From sequence record ON528716: 39,818 bases of DNA, one strand, 5' to 3'. The notes beneath the pieces were generated by a model that was given only the letters and a program-made list of their open reading frames with translations, did no database searches and was not told where the DNA came from. The stretch comes from Shigella phage ESh2. Both the position numbers and the translations under genes were made by a program. Within the stretch, counting starts at the first letter, position 1, and every line of letters begins with the position of its first letter. Positions 1 through 19,847 of this stretch are shown here, in pieces.

Positions 1-151
1 GGGACGAAAGGTTACTATATAGATACTGAATGAATACTTATAGAGTGCATAAAGTCTGCATAGTGGTGTACCTAAAGTGACCTCTAAGAATGGTGATTAT
101 ATTGTATTAATATCACCTTAACTTAAAGACCAACATAAAGGGAGGAGACTC

Positions 152-301
152 ATGTTCCGCTTATTGTTGACCTTGTTGCGGCATAGAGTCACCTACCGAT
201 TTCTTATGGTACTTTGTGCTGCCCTTGGGTACGCATCTCTTACTGGAGACCTCAGTTCACTGGAGTCTACCGTTTGCTCTATACTCACTTGTAGTGATTA
301 G
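152..301 (+). CDS. 19.5: gene 19.5 small protein (49 aa), right-end gene expressed from phiOR
   Basis: ATG at 152 with SD gggaggag upstream; translation MFRLLLTLLRHRVTYRFLMVLCAALGYASLTGDLSSLESTVCSILTCSD matches T7 gp19.5 as recalled; below ORF-track size cutoff. Confidence 0.8.
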   Translation: MFRLLLTLLRHRVTYRFLMVLCAALGYASLTGDLSSLESTVCSILTCSD

Positions 302-359
302 GGTCTTCCTGACCGACTGATGGCTCACCGAGGGATTCAGCGGTATGATTGCATCACAC

Positions 360-480
360 CACTTCATCCCTATAGAGTCAAGTCCTAAGGTATACCCATA
401 AAGAGCCTCTAATGGTCTATCCGTAAGGTCTATACCTAAAGATAGGCCATCCTATCAGTGTCACCTAAAGAGGGTCTTAG
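360..480. repeat. short cctaaag/ccataaag-type repeats on the right-end side of the terminal repeat
   Basis: Repeated cctaagg, ccataaag, cctaaag motifs visible directly; T7 has analogous short repeats flanking the terminal redundancy. Confidence 0.5.
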
Positions 481-541
481 AGAGGGCCTAATGGGTTCCT
501 AGACGGTCCTTTAAAATATACCATAAAAATCTGAGTGACTA

Positions 542-712
542 TCTCACAGTGTACGGACCTAAAGTTCCCCCCATAGGGGTACCTAAAGCCCAGCCAATCA
601 CCTAAAGACAACCTTCGGTTGACCTTGAGGGTCCCTAAGGGTTGGGATTGACCCTTGGGTTTATCTTTGAGTTGGTCCTTTGGTGTTACCTTGAGTGTCT
701 CTTCTTGTCCCT
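542..712. repeat. terminal repeat (single collapsed copy) containing the physical genome left end / concatemer junction
   Basis: tctcacagtgtacggacctaaagttcccc... matches the first bases of the T7 left end; length about 160-170 bp inferred from T7, cannot be delimited from a single copy. Confidence 0.55.
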
Positions 713-714
713 AT

Positions 715-885
715 CTGTTACAGCCTCCTAAAGTATCCTCCTAAAGTCACCTCCTAACGTCCATCCTAAAGCCTACTCCTAAAGCCTACACCTAAAGACA
801 CCATCAAGTCAACGCCTATCTTAAAGTTTAAACATAAAGACCATACCTAAAGACACTACATAAAGACCATACCTAACGATGCCTT
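715..885. repeat. array of cctaaag-type heptamer repeats (left-end repeats)
   Basis: ctcctaaag, tcctcctaaag, acctcctaacg, atcctaaag, ctcctaaag, acacctaaag, cataaagaccatacctaaaga x2 seen directly. Confidence 0.7.
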
Positions 886-938
886 GTTGTTGGCCATAAA
901 GAGATACCTTAATCATAATCTTTAATCATTGTCTTTAT

Positions 939-961
939 TAATACGACTCACTATAAGGAGA
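939..961 (+). promoter_or_regulatory. T7 RNAP promoter phiOL
   Basis: taatacgactcactataaggaga, 23-bp T7 class promoter consensus with A at +1. Confidence 0.8.
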
Positions 962-1014
962 GGACACTTAAAGAAACTCAAAAGAGATTAATTTAAAATT
1001 TATCAAAAAGAGTA

Positions 1015-1043
1015 TTGACTTAAAGTCTAACCTATAGGATACT
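1015..1043 (+). promoter_or_regulatory. E. coli sigma70 early promoter A1
   Basis: TTGACT (1015-1020), 17-bp spacer, GATACT (1038-1043); matches T7 A1 as recalled. Confidence 0.8.
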
Positions 1044-1140
1044 ATGAGCCATCGAGAGGGACACGGCGAATAGCCATCATAATCGACACCGGGTCAAACG
1101 GTTAAGTAGACAGCCTGATAAGTCGTATGAAAAACAGGTA

Positions 1141-1170
1141 TTGACAACATGAAGTAACATGAAGTAAGAT
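1141..1170 (+). promoter_or_regulatory. E. coli sigma70 early promoter A2
   Basis: TTGACA (1141-1146), 18-bp spacer, TAAGAT (1165-1170). Confidence 0.75.
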
Positions 1171-1245
1171 ACACAGCGTCAACCACTGATACGGTGTCTT
1201 CTAGGCGACTTAAGCGCACCACGGCACATAAAGTGAAACAAACGG

Positions 1246-1274
1246 TTGACAACATGAAGTAAACACGGTACGAT
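1246..1274 (+). promoter_or_regulatory. E. coli sigma70 early promoter A3
   Basis: TTGACA (1246-1251), 17-bp spacer, TACGAT (1269-1274). Confidence 0.75.
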
Positions 1275-1396
1275 GTACCACATGAAACGACAGTGAGGCG
1301 CAACACTGAAACGCGCTAGGGTCTAACGAAACCTGACCGACATGCTCTTTAACAATCTGGTAAATAGCTCTTGAGTGTACCGTATAAAGCGAATAA

Positions 1397-1430
1397 CTCA
1401 AGGTCGCACTGAAAGCGTGGCCTTTATGAT
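1397..1430 (+). promoter_or_regulatory. RNase III processing hairpin (R0.3-like)
   Basis: ctcaaggtcgcactgaaagcgtggcctttatgat; member of conserved hairpin family. Confidence 0.6.
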
Positions 1431-1464
1431 ATTCACTTAACGAACTAACATGAGGTAACACCAA

Positions 1465-1923
1465 ATGATTTTCACTAAAGAGCCCGCTAACGTCTTCTAT
1501 GTACTGGTGTCAGCTTTCCGTTCCAACCTCGACGATGAGGTGAACATGAGTCGCCACCGCCACATGGTTAGTACTTTACGTGCCGCACCGGGTCTTTACG
1601 GCTCCGTTGAGTCAACCGATTTGACAGGATGCTATCGTGAGGCAATCGCAAGCGCACCGACTGAGGAAAAAACGATTCGTGTACGCTGCAAGGACAAAGA
1701 GCAGGCACTCAATGTTGCACGCTTAGCTTGTAATGAGTGGGAGCAAGATTGCGTACTGGTATACAAATCACAGACTCACACGGCTGGTCTGGTGTACGCT
1801 AAAGGTTTCAATGGGTATAAGGCCGAACGTCTGCTGGGTAGCTTCCAAGAAGTGCCTAAAGGCGCACCGCTTAAAGGCTGCTTCACGATTGATGAGTTCG
1901 GTCGCCGCTGGCAAGTACAGTAA
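1465..1923 (+). CDS. 0.3: S-adenosylmethionine lyase/hydrolase (T3-type SAMase), anti-restriction
   Basis: 152 aa; SD gaggt 8 nt upstream; MIFTKEPANVFYVLVSAFRSN... near-identical to T3 gp0.3 SAMase as recalled, unrelated to T7 Ocr. Confidence 0.85.
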   Translation: MIFTKEPANVFYVLVSAFRSNLDDEVNMSRHRHMVSTLRAAPGLYGSVESTDLTGCYREAIASAPTEEKTIRVRCKDKEQALNVARLACNEWEQDCVLVYKSQTHTAGLVYAKGFNGYKAERLLGSFQEVPKGAPLKGCFTIDEFGRRWQVQ

Positions 1924-2567: not shown

Positions 2568-3647
2568 GTGAACATTACCGACATCATGAACGCTATCGAC
2601 ACAGTCAAAGAGCTTCCAATCTGTGAACTTGATAAGCGCCAAGGTATGCTTATCGACTTACTGGTTGAGATGGTCAACAGCGAAACGTGTGATGGCGAAA
2701 TGACCGAACTAAATCAGGCACTTGAGTATCAAGATTGGTGGACTACCTTGAAGTGTCTCACGACTGACGCAGGTTTTAAGATGCTCGGTAATGGTCACTT
2801 CTCGGCTGCTTATAGTCACCCGCTGCTGCCTAATAGAGTGATTAAGGTGGGCTTTAAGAAAGAGGACTCAGGCGCTGCGTATACCGCATTCTGTCGCATG
2901 TATCAGGGTCGCGCTGGTATCCCTAACGTCTACGATGTACAGCGCCACGCTGGCTGCTATACGGTTGTACTCGATGCGCTGAACGATTGCGACCGTTACG
3001 ATAACGATGAGCATTATAAGTATGCTGAGATTGCAAGTGACATCATTGACTACAAATCAGATGAGCACGATGGGTTAACTGGATGGGATGGCGAGTTCGT
3101 CGAGACTTGCAAGTTAATCCGCAAGTTCTTTGAGGGCATCGCTTCGTTCGACATGCACAGCGGGAACATTATGTTCAGCGATGATGATACACCATACATT
3201 ACCGACCCTGTATCGTTCTCGCAGAAGAAAGACGGTGGCTCATTCAGTATCGACCCTGAGGAACTCATTAAGGAAGTCGAGGAAGTCGCACGCCAGAAAG
3301 CAATCGACCGCGCTAAGGAACGTAAAGAACGTCATGTGGGTCGATTGGAGGCACGCAGATTCAAACGTCGCAACCGCAAGGCACGTAAAGCACACAAAGC
3401 TAAGAGCGAAAGAATGCTTGCTGCGTGGCGTATGGCTGAGCGCCAAGAACGACGTAACCATGAGGTAGCTGTAGATGTACTAGGTCGAACCAATAACGCC
3501 ATGCTCTGGGTTAACATGTTAGCTGGGGACTTTAAGGCACTTGAAGAACGAGTTGCAGCGCACTGGTTTAATGCTGACCGGATGGCTATCGCTAACGGTC
3601 TTCCACTCAACATCGATAAGAAACTTGATGCAATGCTAATGGGCTGA
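2568..3647 (+). CDS. 0.7: serine/threonine protein kinase / host transcription shutoff
   Basis: 359 aa from GTG at 2568 (SD ggag 8 nt upstream); near-identical to T7 gp0.7 from [11 protein letters not shown]... onward. Confidence 0.9.
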
Positions 3648-7025: not shown

Positions 7026-8051
7026 ATGATGAACATTAAGACCAACCCATTCAAAGCCGTGTCTTTCGTAGAGTCTGCCATTAAGAAGGCTCTGGATAAC
7101 GCTGGGTATCTTATTGCTGACATTAAGTACGATGGTGTACGTGGGAACATCTGCGTAGACAATACTGCTAACAGTTGCTGGCTCTCTCGTGTATCTAAAA
7201 CGATTCCGGCACTGTCTTACCTTAACGGGTTCGACTCACGTTGGCAGTGTCTGCTAAAGGATGACCGCTGCTTCTACCCTGATGGCTTCATGCTGGATTG
7301 CGAACTTATGGTCAAGGGAGTGGACTTCAATACTGGCTCCGGCCTTCTGCGGACCAAGTGGTTAAACAAGAAGAACATGCAGTTCGATATTGGCGGTCCA
7401 TATGAATCGTGGGACGTGAGCATGAAGGGACTTCCTTTCGGCCTTGACCCGAACTTACTAACAGTCAAACTGTACGCTATCATCCCGCTGCACATCGTAG
7501 AGTCTGGAGAAGACTGTGATGTCATGACGTTGCTCATGCAGGAACACGTTAAGAACATGCTGCCTCTGCTACAGGAATACTTCCCCGAAATCGAATGGCA
7601 AGCGGCTGAGTCTTATGAGGTTTACGACATGGTGGAACTACAGCAACTGTACGAGAAGAAGCGTGAAGAAGGTCATGAGGGTCTCATTGTGAAAGACCCG
7701 ATGTGTATCTATAAGCGTGGTAAGAAGTCCGGCTGGTTCAAAATGAAGCCAGAGGACGAAGCTGACGGTCTCATTCAGGGTCTTGTGTGGGGAACCGAAG
7801 GTTTAGCAAATGAAGGTAAAGTAATCGGATTTGAGGTGCTTCTTGAGAGTGGTCGTGTAGTTAACGCCACAAACATCTCTCGCGCCTTAATGGATGAATT
7901 TACAACCAACGTTAAAGAGTTCGGAGATGAATACTACAACGGATGGGCTTGTCAAATCAGCTACATGGAGGAAACACCAGACGGCTCTTTGCGGCACCCA
8001 TCATTCGTAATGTTCCGTGGCACCGAGGACAACCCTCAAGAGAAAATGTAA
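7026..8051 (+). CDS. 1.3: ATP-dependent DNA ligase
   Basis: 341 aa; MMNIKTNPFKAVSFVESAIKKALDNAGYLIADIKYDGVRG (KxDG adenylation motif) matches T7 ligase; about 18 aa shorter than T7 as recalled. Confidence 0.95.
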   Translation: MMNIKTNPFKAVSFVESAIKKALDNAGYLIADIKYDGVRGNICVDNTANSCWLSRVSKTIPALSYLNGFDSRWQCLLKDDRCFYPDGFMLDCELMVKGVDFNTGSGLLRTKWLNKKNMQFDIGGPYESWDVSMKGLPFGLDPNLLTVKLYAIIPLHIVESGEDCDVMTLLMQEHVKNMLPLLQEYFPEIEWQAAESYEVYDMVELQQLYEKKREEGHEGLIVKDPMCIYKRGKKSGWFKMKPEDEADGLIQGLVWGTEGLANEGKVIGFEVLLESGRVVNATNISRALMDEFTTNVKEFGDEYYNGWACQISYMEETPDGSLRHPSFVMFRGTEDNPQEKM

Positions 8052-8056
8052 TCACT

Positions 8057-8088
8057 GGCTCACCTTCGGGTGGGCCTTTCTGCGTTTA
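8057..8088 (+). terminator. early intrinsic terminator TE (host RNAP)
   Basis: 8-bp GC-rich stem ggctcacc/ggtgggcc with ttcg loop followed by tttctgcgttt. Confidence 0.8.
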
Positions 8089-8102
8089 TAAGGAGACACT
8101 TT

Positions 8103-8258
8103 ATGTTTAAGAAGGTTGGTAAATTCCTTGCGGCTTGGGCTGTTATCCTCATATTCACATATCTTCTGGTTGTGCATCCTCCGGTAGCTTTTGTGTTTAT
8201 TGGTGGGTGCTTACTCATATCAGCGTGTATATGCGTGTGGAGTATAGTTAACTGTTAA
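8103..8258 (+). CDS. 1.4: gene 1.4 small membrane protein
   Basis: SD aggag then ATG 8103; MFKKVGKFLAAWAVILIF... matches T7 gp1.4 (51 aa). Confidence 0.8.
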   Translation: MFKKVGKFLAAWAVILIFTYLLVVHPPVAFVFIGGCLLISACICVWSIVNC

Positions 8259-8400: not shown

Positions 8401-8661
8401 ATGTTTCGACTTCATTACAACAAAAGCATTAAGAATTTCACGATTCGCCGTGCTGACCGTTCAATCGTATGTGCGAGCGAGAGCCGAGCTAAGTTACCTC
8501 TTATTGGTAACACAGTTCCTTTGGCACCGAGCGTCCACATCATTATCACCCGTGGTGACTTTGAGAAAGCAATAGACAAGAAACGTCCGGTTCTTAGTGT
8601 GGCAGTGACCCGCTTCCCGTTCGTCCGTCTGTTACTCAAACGAATCAAGGAGGTGTTCTAA
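8401..8661 (+). CDS. 1.6: gene 1.6 protein
   Basis: 86 aa; [27 protein letters not shown]... matches T7 gp1.6. Confidence 0.9.
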
Positions 8662-8997
8662 TGTCTCGTATCATGCAAAAATGTGATAGCCCTACCTACT
8701 GTGAAGCCTGTAATGGTGACGACCGCTTTCCTCATGTGGGTAAGCCTATAGTCGATAAACCACAAGATATAGAGGGTGTGCGCACTCCGAGCCACTACAT
8801 GTTGTTTGACGACATTGAGGCTATCGAAGTGATTGCCCGTTCAATGACTCGTGAGCAGTTCAAAGGGTACTGCTTAGGGAACGTCTTAAAATACAGACTA
8901 CGTGCTGGCAAGAAGTCAGAACTGGCTTACTTAGAGAAAGACCTAGCGAAAGCAGACTTCTATAAAGAACTCTTTGAGAAACATAAGGATAAATGTT

Positions 8998-9005
<8 letters not shown>
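8661..9005 (+). CDS. 1.7: gene 1.7 protein (nucleotide kinase homolog), N-terminally shortened relative to T7
   Basis: 114 aa; C-terminal part ...PSHYMLFDDIEAIEVIARSMTREQFKGYC...KHKDKCYA matches T7 gp1.7 C-terminus; T7 protein recalled as about 196 aa. Confidence 0.8.
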
Positions 9006-9359
<354 letters not shown>

Positions 9360-9362
<3 letters not shown>

Positions 9363-9382
9363 TACGACTCACTATTAGGGAG
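9360..9382 (+). promoter_or_regulatory. T7 RNAP promoter phi2.5
   Basis: taatacgactcactattagggag. Confidence 0.8.
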
Positions 9383-9431
9383 GGAAGACTCCCTTTGAGA
9401 AACCAAACGAAACCTAAAGGAGATTAACATT

Positions 9432-10130
9432 ATGGCTAAGAAGATTTTCACCTCTGCGCTGGGTACTGCTGAACCTTACGCTTACCTCTCCAAGCCGGAC
9501 TACGGTAACGAAGAGCGTGGCTTTGGGAACCCTCGCGGTGTCTACAAAGTTGACCTGACTATTCCCAACAAAGACCCGCGCTGTCAACGCATGGTCGATG
9601 AAATCGTGAAGTGTCACGAAGAGGCTTATGCTGCTGCCGTTGAGGAATACGAAGCGAATCCACCTGCTGTAGCTCGTGGTAAGAAACCGCTGAAACCGTA
9701 TGAAGGCGACATGCCATTCTTCGATAACGGTGACGGCACGACTACCTTTAAGTTCAAATGCTACGCGTCTTTCCAAGACAAGAAGACCAAAGAGACCAAG
9801 CACATCAATCTGGTTGTGGTTGACTCCAAGGGTAAGAAGATGGAAGACGTTCCGATTATCGGTGGTGGCTCTAAGCTGAAAGTCAAATACTCTCTGGTTC
9901 CGTACAAGTGGAACACTGCTGTAGGTGCAAGCGTTAAGCTGCAACTGGAATCCGTGATGCTGGTCGAACTGGCTACCTTTGGTGGCGGTGAAGACGATTG
10001 GGCTGACGAAGTTGAAGAGAACGGCTATGTTGCCTCTGGTTCTGCCAAAGCGAGCAAACCACGCGACGAAGAAAGCTGGGACGAAGACGACGAAGAGTCC
10101 GATGAAGTAGACGAAGACGGAGATTTCTAA
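9432..10130 (+). CDS. 2.5: single-stranded DNA-binding protein with acidic C-terminal tail
   Basis: 232 aa; MAKKIFTSALGTAEPYAYLSKPDYGNEERGF... ends DEDDEESDEVDEDGDF; matches T7 gp2.5. Confidence 0.97.
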   Translation: MAKKIFTSALGTAEPYAYLSKPDYGNEERGFGNPRGVYKVDLTIPNKDPRCQRMVDEIVKCHEEAYAAAVEEYEANPPAVARGKKPLKPYEGDMPFFDNGDGTTTFKFKCYASFQDKKTKETKHINLVVVDSKGKKMEDVPIIGGGSKLKVKYSLVPYKWNTAVGASVKLQLESVMLVELATFGGGEDDWADEVEENGYVASGSAKASKPRDEESWDEDDEESDEVDEDGDF

Positions 10131-10586
10131 GTGGCTGGCGCATACGCTGCGCGTGGTATCAGAAAGGTCGGGACATTCCGTTCCGGCCTAGAAGATAAGG
10201 TCTCTAAGCAGCTAGAGAGTAAAGGTATACAGTTTGACTACGAGCAGTGGAAGATTCCATACGTAGTCCCTGCGAGTAATCATACCTATTGTCCAGATTT
10301 TCTACTGCCCAATGGTATCTTTATCGAGACCAAAGGACTATGGGAAAGTGATGACCGCAAGAAGCACCTACTTATTCGCGAGCAGATGCCTGAGCTAGAT
10401 ATACGACTTGTGTTCTCAAGCTCCCGAACAAAGCTCTACAAAGGGTCTCCAACGTCCTATGCAGAATTTTGTGAAAAGCACGGCATCAAGTTTGCTGATA
10501 AGCTGATTCCAGTTGAGTGGCTCAAAGAGCCTAAACGGGAGGTGCCATTCGATAAGCTCAAACAGTCAAAAGGAGCTAAGAAGTGA
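10131..10586 (+). CDS. 3: endonuclease I (Holliday junction resolvase)
   Basis: 151 aa from GTG at 10131 immediately after the 2.5 stop; MAGAYAARGIRKVGTFRSGLEDKVSKQLESKG...PDFLLPNGIFIETKG matches T7 gp3. Confidence 0.9.
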   Translation: MAGAYAARGIRKVGTFRSGLEDKVSKQLESKGIQFDYEQWKIPYVVPASNHTYCPDFLLPNGIFIETKGLWESDDRKKHLLIREQMPELDIRLVFSSSRTKLYKGSPTSYAEFCEKHGIKFADKLIPVEWLKEPKREVPFDKLKQSKGAKK

Positions 10587-11041
10587 TTCATCCAAAACTC
10601 TTGATAGAGCCGACCGATTCCTGTATTGAATGGACAGGCGCGTTCCACAAGAACGGGTACGGAGTAATCTCTTTGAATCGCAAAGTAGCTGCCGAACTAG
10701 GAATACCTAGGGTGCAATTTGTACACAGGGCAAGCTACATGCAGCATAAAGGAACTATAGGTGATGGACTTGTTGTTCGTCACCTGTGTCACAACAGAAA
10801 GTGTTTCAACCCAGCTCACTTGGAAGTCGGCACTCAGTACGATAACTTCGAAGATAGTGTTAAGGTTGGTCGCAACAAACGTAAACTGCTTGATGAGGAC
10901 GTTAAATCAATTAGAGAGTCCACAATGAGTAACCGCAAGTTAGCCAAGCTATACGGTGTTAGCTCTACAACGATCTTCCACATCAAGCACAACAACAAGT
11001 GGAGGAATTTAAATGGCACGAGTACAATTCAAACAGCGTGA
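10583..11041 (+). CDS. HNH homing endonuclease (free-standing), inserted between genes 3 and 3.5
   Basis: 152 aa from GTG 10583 (SD aggag 7 nt upstream); motifs EWTGAFHKNGYG, HRASY, RHLCHNRKCFNPAHLEVGTQYDN; C-terminal region SNRKLAKLYGVSSTTIFHI resembles a helix-turn-helix. Confidence 0.8.
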   Translation: MIHPKLLIEPTDSCIEWTGAFHKNGYGVISLNRKVAAELGIPRVQFVHRASYMQHKGTIGDGLVVRHLCHNRKCFNPAHLEVGTQYDNFEDSVKVGRNKRKLLDEDVKSIRESTMSNRKLAKLYGVSSTTIFHIKHNNKWRNLNGTSTIQTA

Positions 11042-11468
11042 AAGCACCGATGCAATCTTCGTTCATTGCTCAGCAACAAAACCTAATATGAATTGGGGTG
11101 TACGTGAGATTCGCCAGTCTCATAAAGAGCGTGGGTTCCTAGATGTGGGATACCACTTTATCATCAAGCGCGATGGTACTGTAGAGGAAGGCCGAGATGA
11201 GATGGCTGTAGGCTCTCACGCTAAGGACTACAATCACAACTCAATCGGTGTCTGCCTTGTGGGTGGTATCGACGATAAGGGTAAGTTTGACGCTAACTTT
11301 ACGCCAGCCCAAATGCAATCCCTTCGATCACTGCTTGTCACACTGCTGGCTAAATACGAAGGCGCTGTGCTTCGCGCACATCATGATGTTGCACCTAAGG
11401 CTTGCCCATCGTTCGACCTTAAGCGTTGGTGGGAGAAGAATGAACTTGTAACTTCTGACCGTGGATAA
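11013..11468 (+). CDS. 3.5: lysozyme (N-acetylmuramoyl-L-alanine amidase) / RNAP inhibitor
   Basis: 151 aa; MARVQFKQRESTDAIFVHCSATKPN... matches T7 lysozyme; start and SD lie inside the 3' end of the HNH ORF. Confidence 0.95.
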   Translation: MARVQFKQRESTDAIFVHCSATKPNMNWGVREIRQSHKERGFLDVGYHFIIKRDGTVEEGRDEMAVGSHAKDYNHNSIGVCLVGGIDDKGKFDANFTPAQMQSLRSLLVTLLAKYEGAVLRAHHDVAPKACPSFDLKRWWEKNELVTSDRG

Positions 11469-11469
11469 T

Positions 11470-11492
11470 TAATTGAACTCACTAAAGGGAGA
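11470..11492 (+). promoter_or_regulatory. T7 RNAP promoter phi3.8
   Basis: taattgaactcactaaagggaga. Confidence 0.8.
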
Positions 11493-11512
11493 CCACAACG
11501 GTTTCCCTTTGT
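11487..11512 (+). promoter_or_regulatory. 5' leader hairpin / RNase III site R3.8
   Basis: gggagaccacaacggtttccc hairpin; same sequence recurs at the phi10 leader (22511). Confidence 0.6.
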
Positions 11513-11524
11513 TCGCAATGTTGA

Positions 11525-13285
<1,761 letters not shown>

Positions 13286-16426: not shown

Positions 16427-16445
16427 TTCTATAGGAGAAATTATT

Positions 16446-16745
16446 ATGGCTATGACAAAGAAATTTAAAGTATCCTTTGACGTTACCGCAAAGATGCCGT
16501 CTGACGTTCAGGCAATCTTAGAGAAAGACATACTGCACTTGTGTAAGCAGGTAGGCTCAGGTGCGATTGTCCCAGATGGTAAACAGAAGGAAATGATTGT
16601 CCAGTTCCTGACACACGGTATGGAAGGCGTGATGGCATTCGTAGTGCGTACATCATTCCGTGAGGCCATCAAGGACATGCACGAAGAGTATTCCGATAAG
16701 GACTGCTTCAAGTTATCTCCTGCAACAGTACGGGAGGTGTTCTGA
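16446..16745 (+). CDS. 5.5: gene 5.5 protein (H-NS binding)
   Basis: 99 aa; MAMTKKFKVSFDVTAKMPSDVQAILEKD... matches T7 gp5.5. Confidence 0.9.
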   Translation: MAMTKKFKVSFDVTAKMPSDVQAILEKDILHLCKQVGSGAIVPDGKQKEMIVQFLTHGMEGVMAFVVRTSFREAIKDMHEEYSDKDCFKLSPATVREVF

Positions 16746-16954
16746 TGTCTGACTACCTGAAAGTACTGCAAGCAATCAAAAGTTGCCCTAAGACTTTCCA
16801 GTCCAACTATGTGCGGAACAATGCGAGCCTCGTAGCGGAGGCCGCTTCCCGTGGTCACATCTCATGTCTGACTACGAGTGGACGTAACGGTGGCGCTTGG
16901 GAAATCACTGCTTCCGGTACTCGCTTTCTGAAACGAATGGGAGGGTGTGTCTGA
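16745..16954 (+). CDS. 5.7: gene 5.7 protein
   Basis: 69 aa; MSDYLKVLQAIKSCPKTFQSNYVRNNASLVAEAASRGH... matches T7 gp5.7. Confidence 0.9.
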   Translation: MSDYLKVLQAIKSCPKTFQSNYVRNNASLVAEAASRGHISCLTTSGRNGGAWEITASGTRFLKRMGGCV

Positions 16955-19128: not shown

Positions 19129-19449
19129 ATGGGTAAGAAAGTCAAGAAGGTAGTTAAGAAAGTAACTAAGCCCGTTGAGAAAGCCGTAAAGAAAGTTACC
19201 AAGGAAGTGACTCGTCCTATTAAACAGGTTGCTGGTGCGCTGGCGGGTGGTGCTGGTGAAGCACAAGTAGTTGAAGTTCCACAACCAACAGCTGCTGCTA
19301 CTCCTGCTGCACAAATTGTTGACGTACCTGAGAAAGAGGTTTCCACTGATGACGAAGCACAGACCGAAAGCGGACGCAAGAAAGCTCGTTCTGAAGGTAA
19401 GAAGTCCTTGAGTGTAGCCCGTAGCTCCGGTGGGGGTATAAATATATGA
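19129..19449 (+). CDS. 7.3: gene 7.3 tail-associated protein (Lys-rich N-terminus)
   Basis: 106 aa; MGKKVKKVVKKVTKPVEKAVKKVTKE... ending SVARSSGGGINI; matches T7 gp7.3 with a 7-aa PTAAATP insertion. Confidence 0.9.
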   Translation: MGKKVKKVVKKVTKPVEKAVKKVTKEVTRPIKQVAGALAGGAGEAQVVEVPQPTAAATPAAQIVDVPEKEVSTDDEAQTESGRKKARSEGKKSLSVARSSGGGINI

Positions 19450-19847
19450 CAGATTGTATCCTTCATACTGGTTGCACGACTAAAGGAGGGTACGGTCTCG
19501 TTGGTTATAAAGGTAAGACACAGCTGGCTCACAGGGTATCATACATCAAATCAAAGGGTGAGATACCGACTGGTATGGTCATAATGCATACCTGTGACAA
19601 CCCTCTGTGTATCAACCCTGAACATCTTGTAGCTGGAACTCAGCGTGATAACCGTATGGACTGTGTAACTAAAGGTAGAGCGAACGTATCCAGAGGTGAA
19701 GAGCATTATTGTGCCAAGCTCACTGAGGCCATTGTGCGTGAGATTCGTGCATCAAATTTAACCAACACTGAGTTGTCAGAAGTGTATGGCATCCATAGGA
19801 GAACCATTAGTGACGCTCGATGTGGTAAGACATGGAGACATATTTAA
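19446..19847 (+). CDS. 7.7: HNH homing endonuclease at the gene 7.7 position
   Basis: 133 aa; TKGGYGLVGYKGKTQLAHRVSY...HTCDNPLCINPEHLVAGTQRDN HNH motif; C-terminal NTELSEVYGIHRRTISD HTH-like; stop overlaps gene 8 start by 1 nt. Confidence 0.85.
   Translation: MTDCILHTGCTTKGGYGLVGYKGKTQLAHRVSYIKSKGEIPTGMVIMHTCDNPLCINPEHLVAGTQRDNRMDCVTKGRANVSRGEEHYCAKLTEAIVREIRASNLTNTELSEVYGIHRRTISDARCGKTWRHI

Follow-up and report, generated by a model that had tools for sequence, protein, structure and literature searches.

Gene 3.3 of a T7-like Shigella phage, a probable free-standing HNH homing endonuclease at the gene 3/3.5 junction

Why should a T7-like phage carry a small HNH gene wedged between its endonuclease I and lysozyme genes, a junction that is empty in T7 itself, and does this gene stand in place of the T7 genes 2.8 and 3.8, which are missing from the same region? 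The window analysed here, the whole 39,818-nucleotide stretch of Shigella phage ESh2 (record ON528716), represents the complete genome of a T7-like phage in the genus Teseptimavirus and aligns with T7 over nearly its full length at 85-94% identity, in a circularly permuted order (window 1-712 corresponds to T7 39238-39937, and window 542-1467 to T7 1-927). Its nearest records in the phage collection, AV103, JacobBurckhardt and Yanou, are about 92-93% identical to it. The best explanation of the locus, which we regard as very probable, is that the gene, 3.3, is a free-standing homing endonuclease (HE) that cuts or nicks the empty 3/3.5 junction of co-infecting relatives and is copied into it by recombinational repair.

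Anatomy of the gene 3.3 locus

Gene 3.3 occupies 10583-11041 on the plus strand, with GTG as its start codon and a product of 152 aa. It is flanked on the left by gene 3 (endonuclease I, 10131-10586, plus strand, GTG start, 73.8% nucleotide identity to T7 gene 3) and on the right by gene 3.5 (lysozyme/amidase, 11013-11468, plus strand, ATG at 11013). Both junctions are as the initial annotation had described them. At the left the GTG (10583-10585) sits on the gene 3 stop codon TGA (10584-10586), forming a GTGA at 10583-10586 through which gene 3.3 is translationally coupled to gene 3, and at the right the reading frame shares its last 29 nt with gene 3.5, this plus-strand segment (11013-11041) encoding tail residues 144-152. 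Among orthologues this overlap with gene 3.5 ranges from 1 to 38 nt.

Comparison with phages lacking the insertion reveals how the translation signals have been rewired. The plus-strand start region of gene 3.3 (10570-10586) comprises AAGGAG (10570-10575), a 7-nt spacer and the GTG, and alignment with LNA7, AV103 and T7 identifies this AAGGAG as the Shine-Dalgarno sequence of gene 3.5 in HE-less phages. A replacement GGAGG (11001-11005), again with a 7-nt spacer before the gene 3.5 ATG (11001-11015 overall, plus strand), sits within the 3'-terminal part of the HE ORF and is missing at HE-less junctions. Gene 3.3 takes over the gene 3.5 Shine-Dalgarno of HE-less phages and supplies a substitute for gene 3.5. 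In the HE-less genomes the gene 3 stop and gene 3.5 start overlap as TAATG, and the junction shared by LNA7, AV103 and T7 reads GGAGGAAAGAAATAATGGC (in its longer form ...AAAGGAGGAAAGAAATAATGGC...); the occupied junction in the window reads ...AAAGGAGCTAAGAAGTGATTC, followed by approximately 430 nt and then GTGGAGGAATTTAAATGGC....

Transcription of the locus follows from its promoters. The T7-type phi2.5 promoter (9360-9382, plus strand, TAATACGACTCACTATTAGGGAG) drives the 2.5-3-3.3-3.5 transcription unit, and there is no T7-type promoter core from there to 11470, where phi3.8 begins (11470-11492, plus strand, TAATTGAACTCACTAAAGGGAGA). As no core lies between phi2.5 and phi3.8, gene 3.3 is expressed with the class II DNA-metabolism genes; it has no promoter of its own and is part of the phi2.5 class II transcript. 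A scan of 9000-12000 for sigma-70 promoters and terminators found sites no more numerous than in shuffled sequence.

The positions occupied in T7 by genes 2.8 and 3.8 are indeed vacant, as had been proposed. The last nucleotide of gene 2.5 is 10130 and gene 3 follows directly from 10131, leaving the 2.8 position empty, and gene 4 starts 47 nt beyond phi3.8, at 11540, with no gene 3.8 between them; in the T7 alignment, the T7 blocks 9861-10277 (gene 2.8), 11214-11585 (gene 3.8) and 16469-16833 (gene 5.3) have no counterpart in the window. The accompanying suggestion that gene 3.3 is present instead of 2.8 and 3.8 was overstated. Most close HE-less relatives also lack both genes, as is seen from their matches, which span about 2174 nt, and from the genes listed for AV103. 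Gene 3.3 coexists with a 3.8 gene in Yersinia phage phiA1122 and in Klebsiella phage SH-Kp 152410. This co-carriage indicates that the 2.8, 3.3 and 3.8 sites vary independently, and a loss of 2.8/3.8 tied to the gain of 3.3 is ruled out by AV103, in which all three are absent, and by the two phages that have 3.3 and 3.8 together. The gene is, as claimed, the second HNH gene of this genome: another HNH_3 endonuclease gene occupies the T7 7.7 position (19446-19847, plus strand, 133 aa, Pfam HNH_3 E 2e-12), and its product is a paralogue with 36% aa identity to gp3.3 and 47% to T7 gp7.7. The GC content of the insert is 44.4% (44.5% for the 7.7-position gene) against 48.5% for the genome, a difference in keeping with recent mobility, although it puts the insert only in the lowest 8% of windows, which weakens this sign.

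Domains, conserved residues and selection

The gp3.3 protein scores 40.7 bits against the Pfam HNH_3 family (PF13392, cut-off 24.8, E 1.8e-10) over residues 46-88, encoded by 10718-10846 on the plus strand and containing H67, C69, C74, N76, H79 and N88; it also matches PHROG 59 (HNH endonuclease, E 2.3e-30), and its dN/dS is 0.04 against phiA1122, 0.09 against Yanou and 0.05 against Rambo. The HNH_3 score, the PHROG match and the low dN/dS argue that this is a real, intact gene and no chance ORF. The low ratio spans the whole length of the protein, nuclease core included, and indicates strong purifying selection. Such selection, maintained across four genera, is greater than would be predicted for a purely selfish element passing through gain, decay and loss, and to this extent it weighs against the homing endonuclease reading.

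Residues 66-88 of gp3.3 read RHLCHNRKCFNPAHLEVGTQYDN and include a loop of the type known from I-PpoI (H-x-C-x4-C-x-N-P-x-H-L...N). In an alignment of 33 homologues the invariant residues are C14, Y26, H48, H67, C69, C74, N76, P77, H79, L80 and N88, and both the catalytic His (H67) and the metal-binding Asn (N88) are kept, aligning with I-PpoI H98 and N119. The Pfam zf-His_Me_endon family is also matched, at 28.0 bits against a cut-off of 27. Several sub-threshold Pfam helix-turn-helix matches fall in residues 101-138, where the AlphaFold2 (AF2) model places three helices (104-112, 117-124 and 128-135) in a predicted C-terminal helix-turn-helix (residues 104-135, 10892-10987, plus strand). This model, with a mean pLDDT of 86, has a beta-rich N-terminal part, a beta-beta-alpha core and the three C-terminal helices, while pLDDT drops below 50 in residues 145-152, encoded by the gene 3.5 overlap, and the tail (residues 144-152) is probably unstructured. 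A Foldseek search of viral models returned 149 HNH proteins at E<=1e-3, T7 gp7.7 among them. Taken from these profiles and the model, gp3.3 appears to be a two-module enzyme, with a zinc-stabilised HNH/His-Me finger core, a putative nuclease, joined to a C-terminal helix-turn-helix.

Distribution, mobility and the case for homing

In four genera of the Studiervirinae, orthologues of gp3.3 with 64-100% aa identity have their genes between those for endonuclease I and lysozyme. The carriers in Teseptimavirus are the phiA1122 group, the Cedecea phage Yanou, Rambo, KFSA9 and Yep_15, and in other genera they are Berlinvirus P151, the Serratia phage SALSA (Teetrevirus) and many Klebsiella phages of the genus Przondovirus. 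The synteny comparison called for by the initial annotation shows that the arrangement is far from universal: the uninterrupted gene 3/3.5 junction has matches in 176 phage records, against only 18 that contain at least 80% of the HE region as DNA and 57 with a gp3.3 orthologue of at least 60% aa identity; the wider family has matches in 1403 phage records. By these counts the carriers are a minority of the genomes, and gene 3.3 is best described as an ordinary mobile-gene polymorphism with a fixed site and sporadic occupancy.

The segment around the gene is also the least diverged part of the genome in comparisons with two other carriers. The 700 nt centred on the HE differ from JacobBurckhardt at 6 positions (genome median 46), the smallest number among 1205 windows, and from PGX1 at 4 positions (genome median 63), the smallest number among 1086 windows; over aligned sequence the two genomes are 92.2% and 88.9% identical to the window, respectively. 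These least-diverged blocks point to recent transfer of the HE with short flanks, and they support the earlier proposal of intron-less HE turnover at a site other than the one used in T7. In the Serratia phage SALSA the HE is 64% identical to that of the window, while gp2.5, gp3 and gp3.5 are 83-85% identical. Such traces, together with a gene 3.5 flank allele confined to carriers (described below), are expected of homing with co-conversion; ordinary recombination in mosaic phages could also leave low-divergence blocks, a point that tells against the homing endonuclease reading.

Where the enzyme would act can be narrowed by comparing the sequences beside the insertion. To its right, the 5' block of gene 3.5 (11013-11140, plus strand) is divergent from HE-less phages: 30-33 of 129 nt differ in the first 43 codons, mostly synonymously, as opposed to only 18-24 of 324 nt in the next 108 codons, and at an identity of at least 90% this block is found in only 11 records, all of them HE carriers. 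The possibility that these 128 nt are a recoded target always travelling with the HE is weakened by three carriers. In Yanou the HE lies beside a gene 3.5 start of the HE-less type (0/20 and 2/50 mismatches to LNA7 after the ATG), and its gene 3 is nearly identical to the one in HE-less AV103 except in roughly the last 200 nt (5, 4, 1 and 7 mismatches per 50 nt); in Rambo and Yep_15, as judged by block identity, the HE is likewise followed by a different gene 3.5 allele. The other alleles in these three phages make it more likely that the recognition site spans the junction itself. Just left of the insert, at GGAG[GA]AAGAA[A]T[A]A, all examined carriers differ from HE-less genomes. The simplest reading of these alignments, and the more likely one, is that the insertion has split a recognition site lying across the gene 3/3.5 junction; the long divergent gene 3.5 block would then be a co-converted remnant and no obligatory immunity allele.

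The homing endonuclease reading is established as regards the integrity of the gene, its domains and catalytic residues, its expression context, its fixed site and sporadic occupancy, and the recent shared ancestry of the block. From these we infer cleavage, its target, biased inheritance and the chemistry, be it double-strand cutting or nicking. When a carrier infects a cell together with a T7-like phage whose junction is uninterrupted, gp3.3 would nick or cut at or beside that junction, and the phage recombination machinery would mend the break from the HE-carrying genome, copying in the 430-nt gene together with short flanks. Carriers would themselves be protected, their site being split by the insertion and the bases beside it being different.

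Three other accounts of the gene have to be weighed against homing. The patchy distribution would also arise if gene 3.3 were ancestral, inherited vertically and now immobile, having been repeatedly lost by deletion, and this view can draw on the identical site in four genera and on HE divergence, which from phage to phage broadly follows the divergence of gp2.5, gp3 and gp3.5. However, it does not account for an HE block that is the least diverged in the genome against two carriers whose backbones have fallen to 92% and 89% identity, nor for an HE in SALSA that has diverged well beyond its flanks, and the HE-less junctions, with their TAATG overlap, are seamless and carry no deletion scars; we consider such a history improbable. 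Still harder to sustain is the idea that gp3.3 is an inactive remnant, or purely a DNA-binding helix-turn-helix regulator with no nuclease role. The C-terminal helix-turn-helix is confidently predicted, and non-catalytic effects of phage HEs exist (10.1101/2025.09.07.674715), but all the catalytic and zinc-binding residues are invariant in the 33 homologues, the ORF is intact, and dN/dS is low over the full length including the nuclease core, so that we give this idea hardly any credence.

The account that deserves most attention beside homing, and which can coexist with it, is that the endonuclease has been domesticated or put to dual use, its retention owing mainly to a benefit to the phage, for example through interference competition, in which it would cut rival T7-like phages, or through the blunting of a host defence, possibly without catalysis. 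It is favoured by the low dN/dS (0.04-0.09) and the full-length orthologues in four genera, by the paralogy of gp2.8 and gp7.7 with gp3.3, and by a 2025 preprint (10.1101/2025.09.07.674715) reporting that catalytically dead T7 gp3.8 attenuates the GAPS4 defence and that, in the presence of GAPS4, wild-type T7 outcompetes T7 lacking 2.8, 7.7 and 3.8. However, that work concerns other T7 endonucleases, with gp3.3 outside its scope, and the effects of 2.8 and 7.7 are pooled there with those of 3.8, which is unrelated in sequence; moreover, most close relatives do well without gene 3.3. We therefore hold domestication or dual use to be a possible but rather unlikely main explanation. Equally tentative is the claim that conservation of gene 3.3 over four genera reflects selection for a phage-level benefit and not mere selfishness; candidates for that benefit are that gp3.3 may knock out co-infecting HE-less phages at the essential 3/3.5 junction, or may dampen a break-sensing defence such as GAPS4.

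The gene carries little weight as a discovery, since it already has a name and several phage records describe it as a homing endonuclease. Its value lies in offering a clean natural polymorphism of the homing type in the best-understood phage system, at a locus that is seamless when empty, occupied in a minority of genomes and precisely rewired in its expression signals when filled, and in which genomes otherwise 89-92% identical have shared no segment more recently than the HE block. Because JacobBurckhardt, a member of the BASEL collection, encodes an identical protein, homing and competition against T7 are directly measurable.

Relation to known endonucleases

The best solved relative of gp3.3 by both profile and fold is I-HmuI of Bacillus phage SPO1 (PDB 1U3E). 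The profile alignment (E 5.4e-6, query 36-158, chain 34-163) takes in the nuclease core and the C-terminal helix-turn-helix at 18% identity. In the Foldseek ranking of PDB structures I-HmuI comes first and I-PpoI next, with E-values that are weak (0.02-0.05) and count against the homing endonuclease reading: the I-HmuI chain 1u3e_M has a probability of 0.96, but an E-value of 0.022, a TM-score of 0.41 and an rmsd of 11.3 Å, and the orientation of the domains probably differs between the two proteins. I-HmuI lacks the Cys/His zinc loop of gp3.3. It is encoded within an intron and nicks one strand, whereas gene 3.3 is free-standing and lies outside any group I intron, between the intact genes 3 and 3.5 and overlapping both.

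The zinc loop has its counterpart in I-PpoI (PDB 1A73/1CZ0), on which the catalytic and first zinc-site motif of gp3.3 can be superimposed. In the profile search H67-L-C69-H-N-R-K-C74-F-N-P-A-H79-L...N88 of gp3.3 matches H98-L-C100-H-N-T-R-C105-H-N-P-L-H110-L...N119 of I-PpoI, residues to which we assign the roles of general base, first zinc site and metal ligand. The likeness is limited to approximately 48 residues, and the DNA-binding parts are unlike. I-PpoI, a eukaryotic intron-encoded dimer, has a second Cys3-His zinc site C-terminal to its catalytic Asn; gp3.3 has no cysteine after C74, so that this second site is absent and membership of the His-Cys box family is ruled out. Nor is gp3.3 assigned to the IPA-HNH class of Barth et al. 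(2023, PMC10448857), in which HNH is combined with AP2, as the Pfam scan found no AP2 domain in it.

Within the T7 group the gene is already known and ordinary, having been named in GenBank since the phiA1122 record, and by sequence the ORF at 10583-11041 corresponds to this previously named gene 3.3. Its product is 96.7% identical over 152 aa to phiA1122 protein 3.3 (AAP20512.1) and 100% identical to bas65_0025 of JacobBurckhardt (BASEL Bas65), and PGX1 is 99.4% identical to the window in DNA across the locus. The phiA1122 protein and its orthologues bas65_0025, PGX1 WGL32415.1 and SH-Kp 152410 gp16, all of 152 aa and 96.7-100% identical, represent the same gene, with the same overlap of the GTG and the gene 3 stop, the same 29-nt overlap with gene 3.5 and the same position between endonuclease I and lysozyme. 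The records of phiA1122 and Klebsiella phage SH-Kp 152410 (RefSeq) call it "protein 3.3", and those of JacobBurckhardt and PGX1 a putative homing endonuclease. The window differs from phiA1122 in lacking the gene 3.8 that phiA1122 keeps, and across the genome backbone its identity to the best records reaches only about 92%.

A literature search on genes 3.3, 2.8 and 7.7 yielded only the GAPS4 preprint, and no biochemical study or cleavage data for their products appeared in the papers searched. In BLASTP searches gp3.3 matches T7 gp2.8 (38.6%, E 4e-24) and T7 gp7.7 (39.9%, E 4e-33), and at E<=10 there is no match to gp3.8 of T7 or phiA1122 and none to gp5.3. The initial annotation had proposed aligning gp3.3 with T7 gp3.8, gp5.3 and gp7.7 and had allowed for a displaced gp3.8 orthologue; this is ruled out, BLASTP finding no similarity. 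T7 gp3.8, encoded in the same early/middle region, is likewise a putative homing endonuclease of the HNH class, but it has no detectable similarity to gp3.3 and occupies another site (3.5|4), empty in the window. T7 gp7.7 and gp2.8, in contrast, belong to the family of gp3.3 and have its architecture, with an HNH_3 core, a CxNxxCxNPxHL loop and a C-terminal helix-turn-helix, and they are situated at other junctions, 7.3|8 and 2.5|3 respectively, while 3|3.5 is empty in T7. The BLASTP matches to gp2.8 and gp7.7, and not to gp3.8, indicate that the 2.8/7.7 family has in gp3.3 a third paralogue, which occupies a third junction. A pattern already described in phages is that HE genes lie beside essential genes and at the borders of exchanged segments (Barth et al. 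2023, PMC10448857).

Gene 3 and its two insertion sites

Gene 3, encoding endonuclease I (10131-10586, plus strand), is only 73.8% identical to its T7 counterpart at the nucleotide level, whereas most aligned blocks of the window and T7 are 85-94% identical. Among close relatives it falls into at least three allele classes, with breakpoints lying within the gene, and both of the junctions at which endonuclease genes are inserted, 2.5|3 and 3|3.5, border it.

Carriers of gene 3.3 among the relatives

Gene 3.3, the free-standing HNH_3 endonuclease gene between gene 3 and the lysozyme gene 3.5, is carried by the close relatives PGX1 and JacobBurckhardt. The record of Escherichia phage PGX1 (OQ703770.1) spans 37,009 bp, its RNA polymerase is annotated as a CDS of 90 nt only (3121-3210) and its gene 3.5 annotation is shortened (7830-8165); over the 3' half of gene 3.5 and the downstream spacer (window 11250-11499) it shows 26-50 mismatches per 50 nt against the window. 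This record may come from an engineered phage or from a variant that arose by deletion. JacobBurckhardt encodes a further putative homing endonuclease (record 10709-11200), its gene overlapping that of DNA ligase at the latter's end, a position at which the window has no ORF, and BLASTP of this protein against gp3.3 returned insignificant matches only (E 1.2 and 3.9).

In the Serratia phage SALSA, a Teetrevirus, the gene 3.3 orthologue (record 1518-1952) bears no annotation beyond 'hypothetical protein', and the genes flanking it are 83-85% identical to their window counterparts. Judged by eye, its sequence looks nearer to the protein of the Berlinvirus P151 than to the Teseptimavirus proteins, a likeness that hints at transfer between genera.

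The 7.7 and 5.3 positions

A paralogue of gene 3.3 occupies the T7 7.7 position (19446-19847, plus strand), and its HNH_3 product has only 47% amino acid identity to T7 gp7.7. Window 19445-19825 forms a gap in the DNA alignment to T7, with flanks about 92-93% identical on either side. At the 7.7 site the window and T7 carry distinct alleles belonging to one family. T7 gene 5.3 is missing from the window at 16427-16429, leaving T7 16469-16833 without a counterpart, and gene 5.5 lies almost immediately 3' of the DNA polymerase gene.

Genome map and early region compared with T7

The window map is a circular permutation of that of T7: positions 39238-39937 at the right end of T7 match window 1-712, and positions 1-927 at its left end match window 542-1467, so that the terminal repeat is present once, as 542-712. 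The early stretches 1467-2197, at the 0.3 position, and 8663-8792, at the 1.7 position, have no counterpart in the alignment to T7. The gene 1.6 homologue (8401-8661, plus strand; E 1.5e-22) matches PF06726, named 'Bladder cancer-related protein BC10', a strange name for a T7 early protein. At the 1.7 position, where T7 has a 196-aa nucleotide kinase, the window instead encodes a 114-aa DUF3310 protein (8661-9005, plus strand; PF11753, E 1.4e-23). The 0.3 position, occupied in T7 by the Ocr anti-restriction gene, here carries an S-adenosylmethionine lyase gene (1465-1923, plus strand; PF23780, E 2.9e-43), whose product resembles that of phage T3 gene 0.3.
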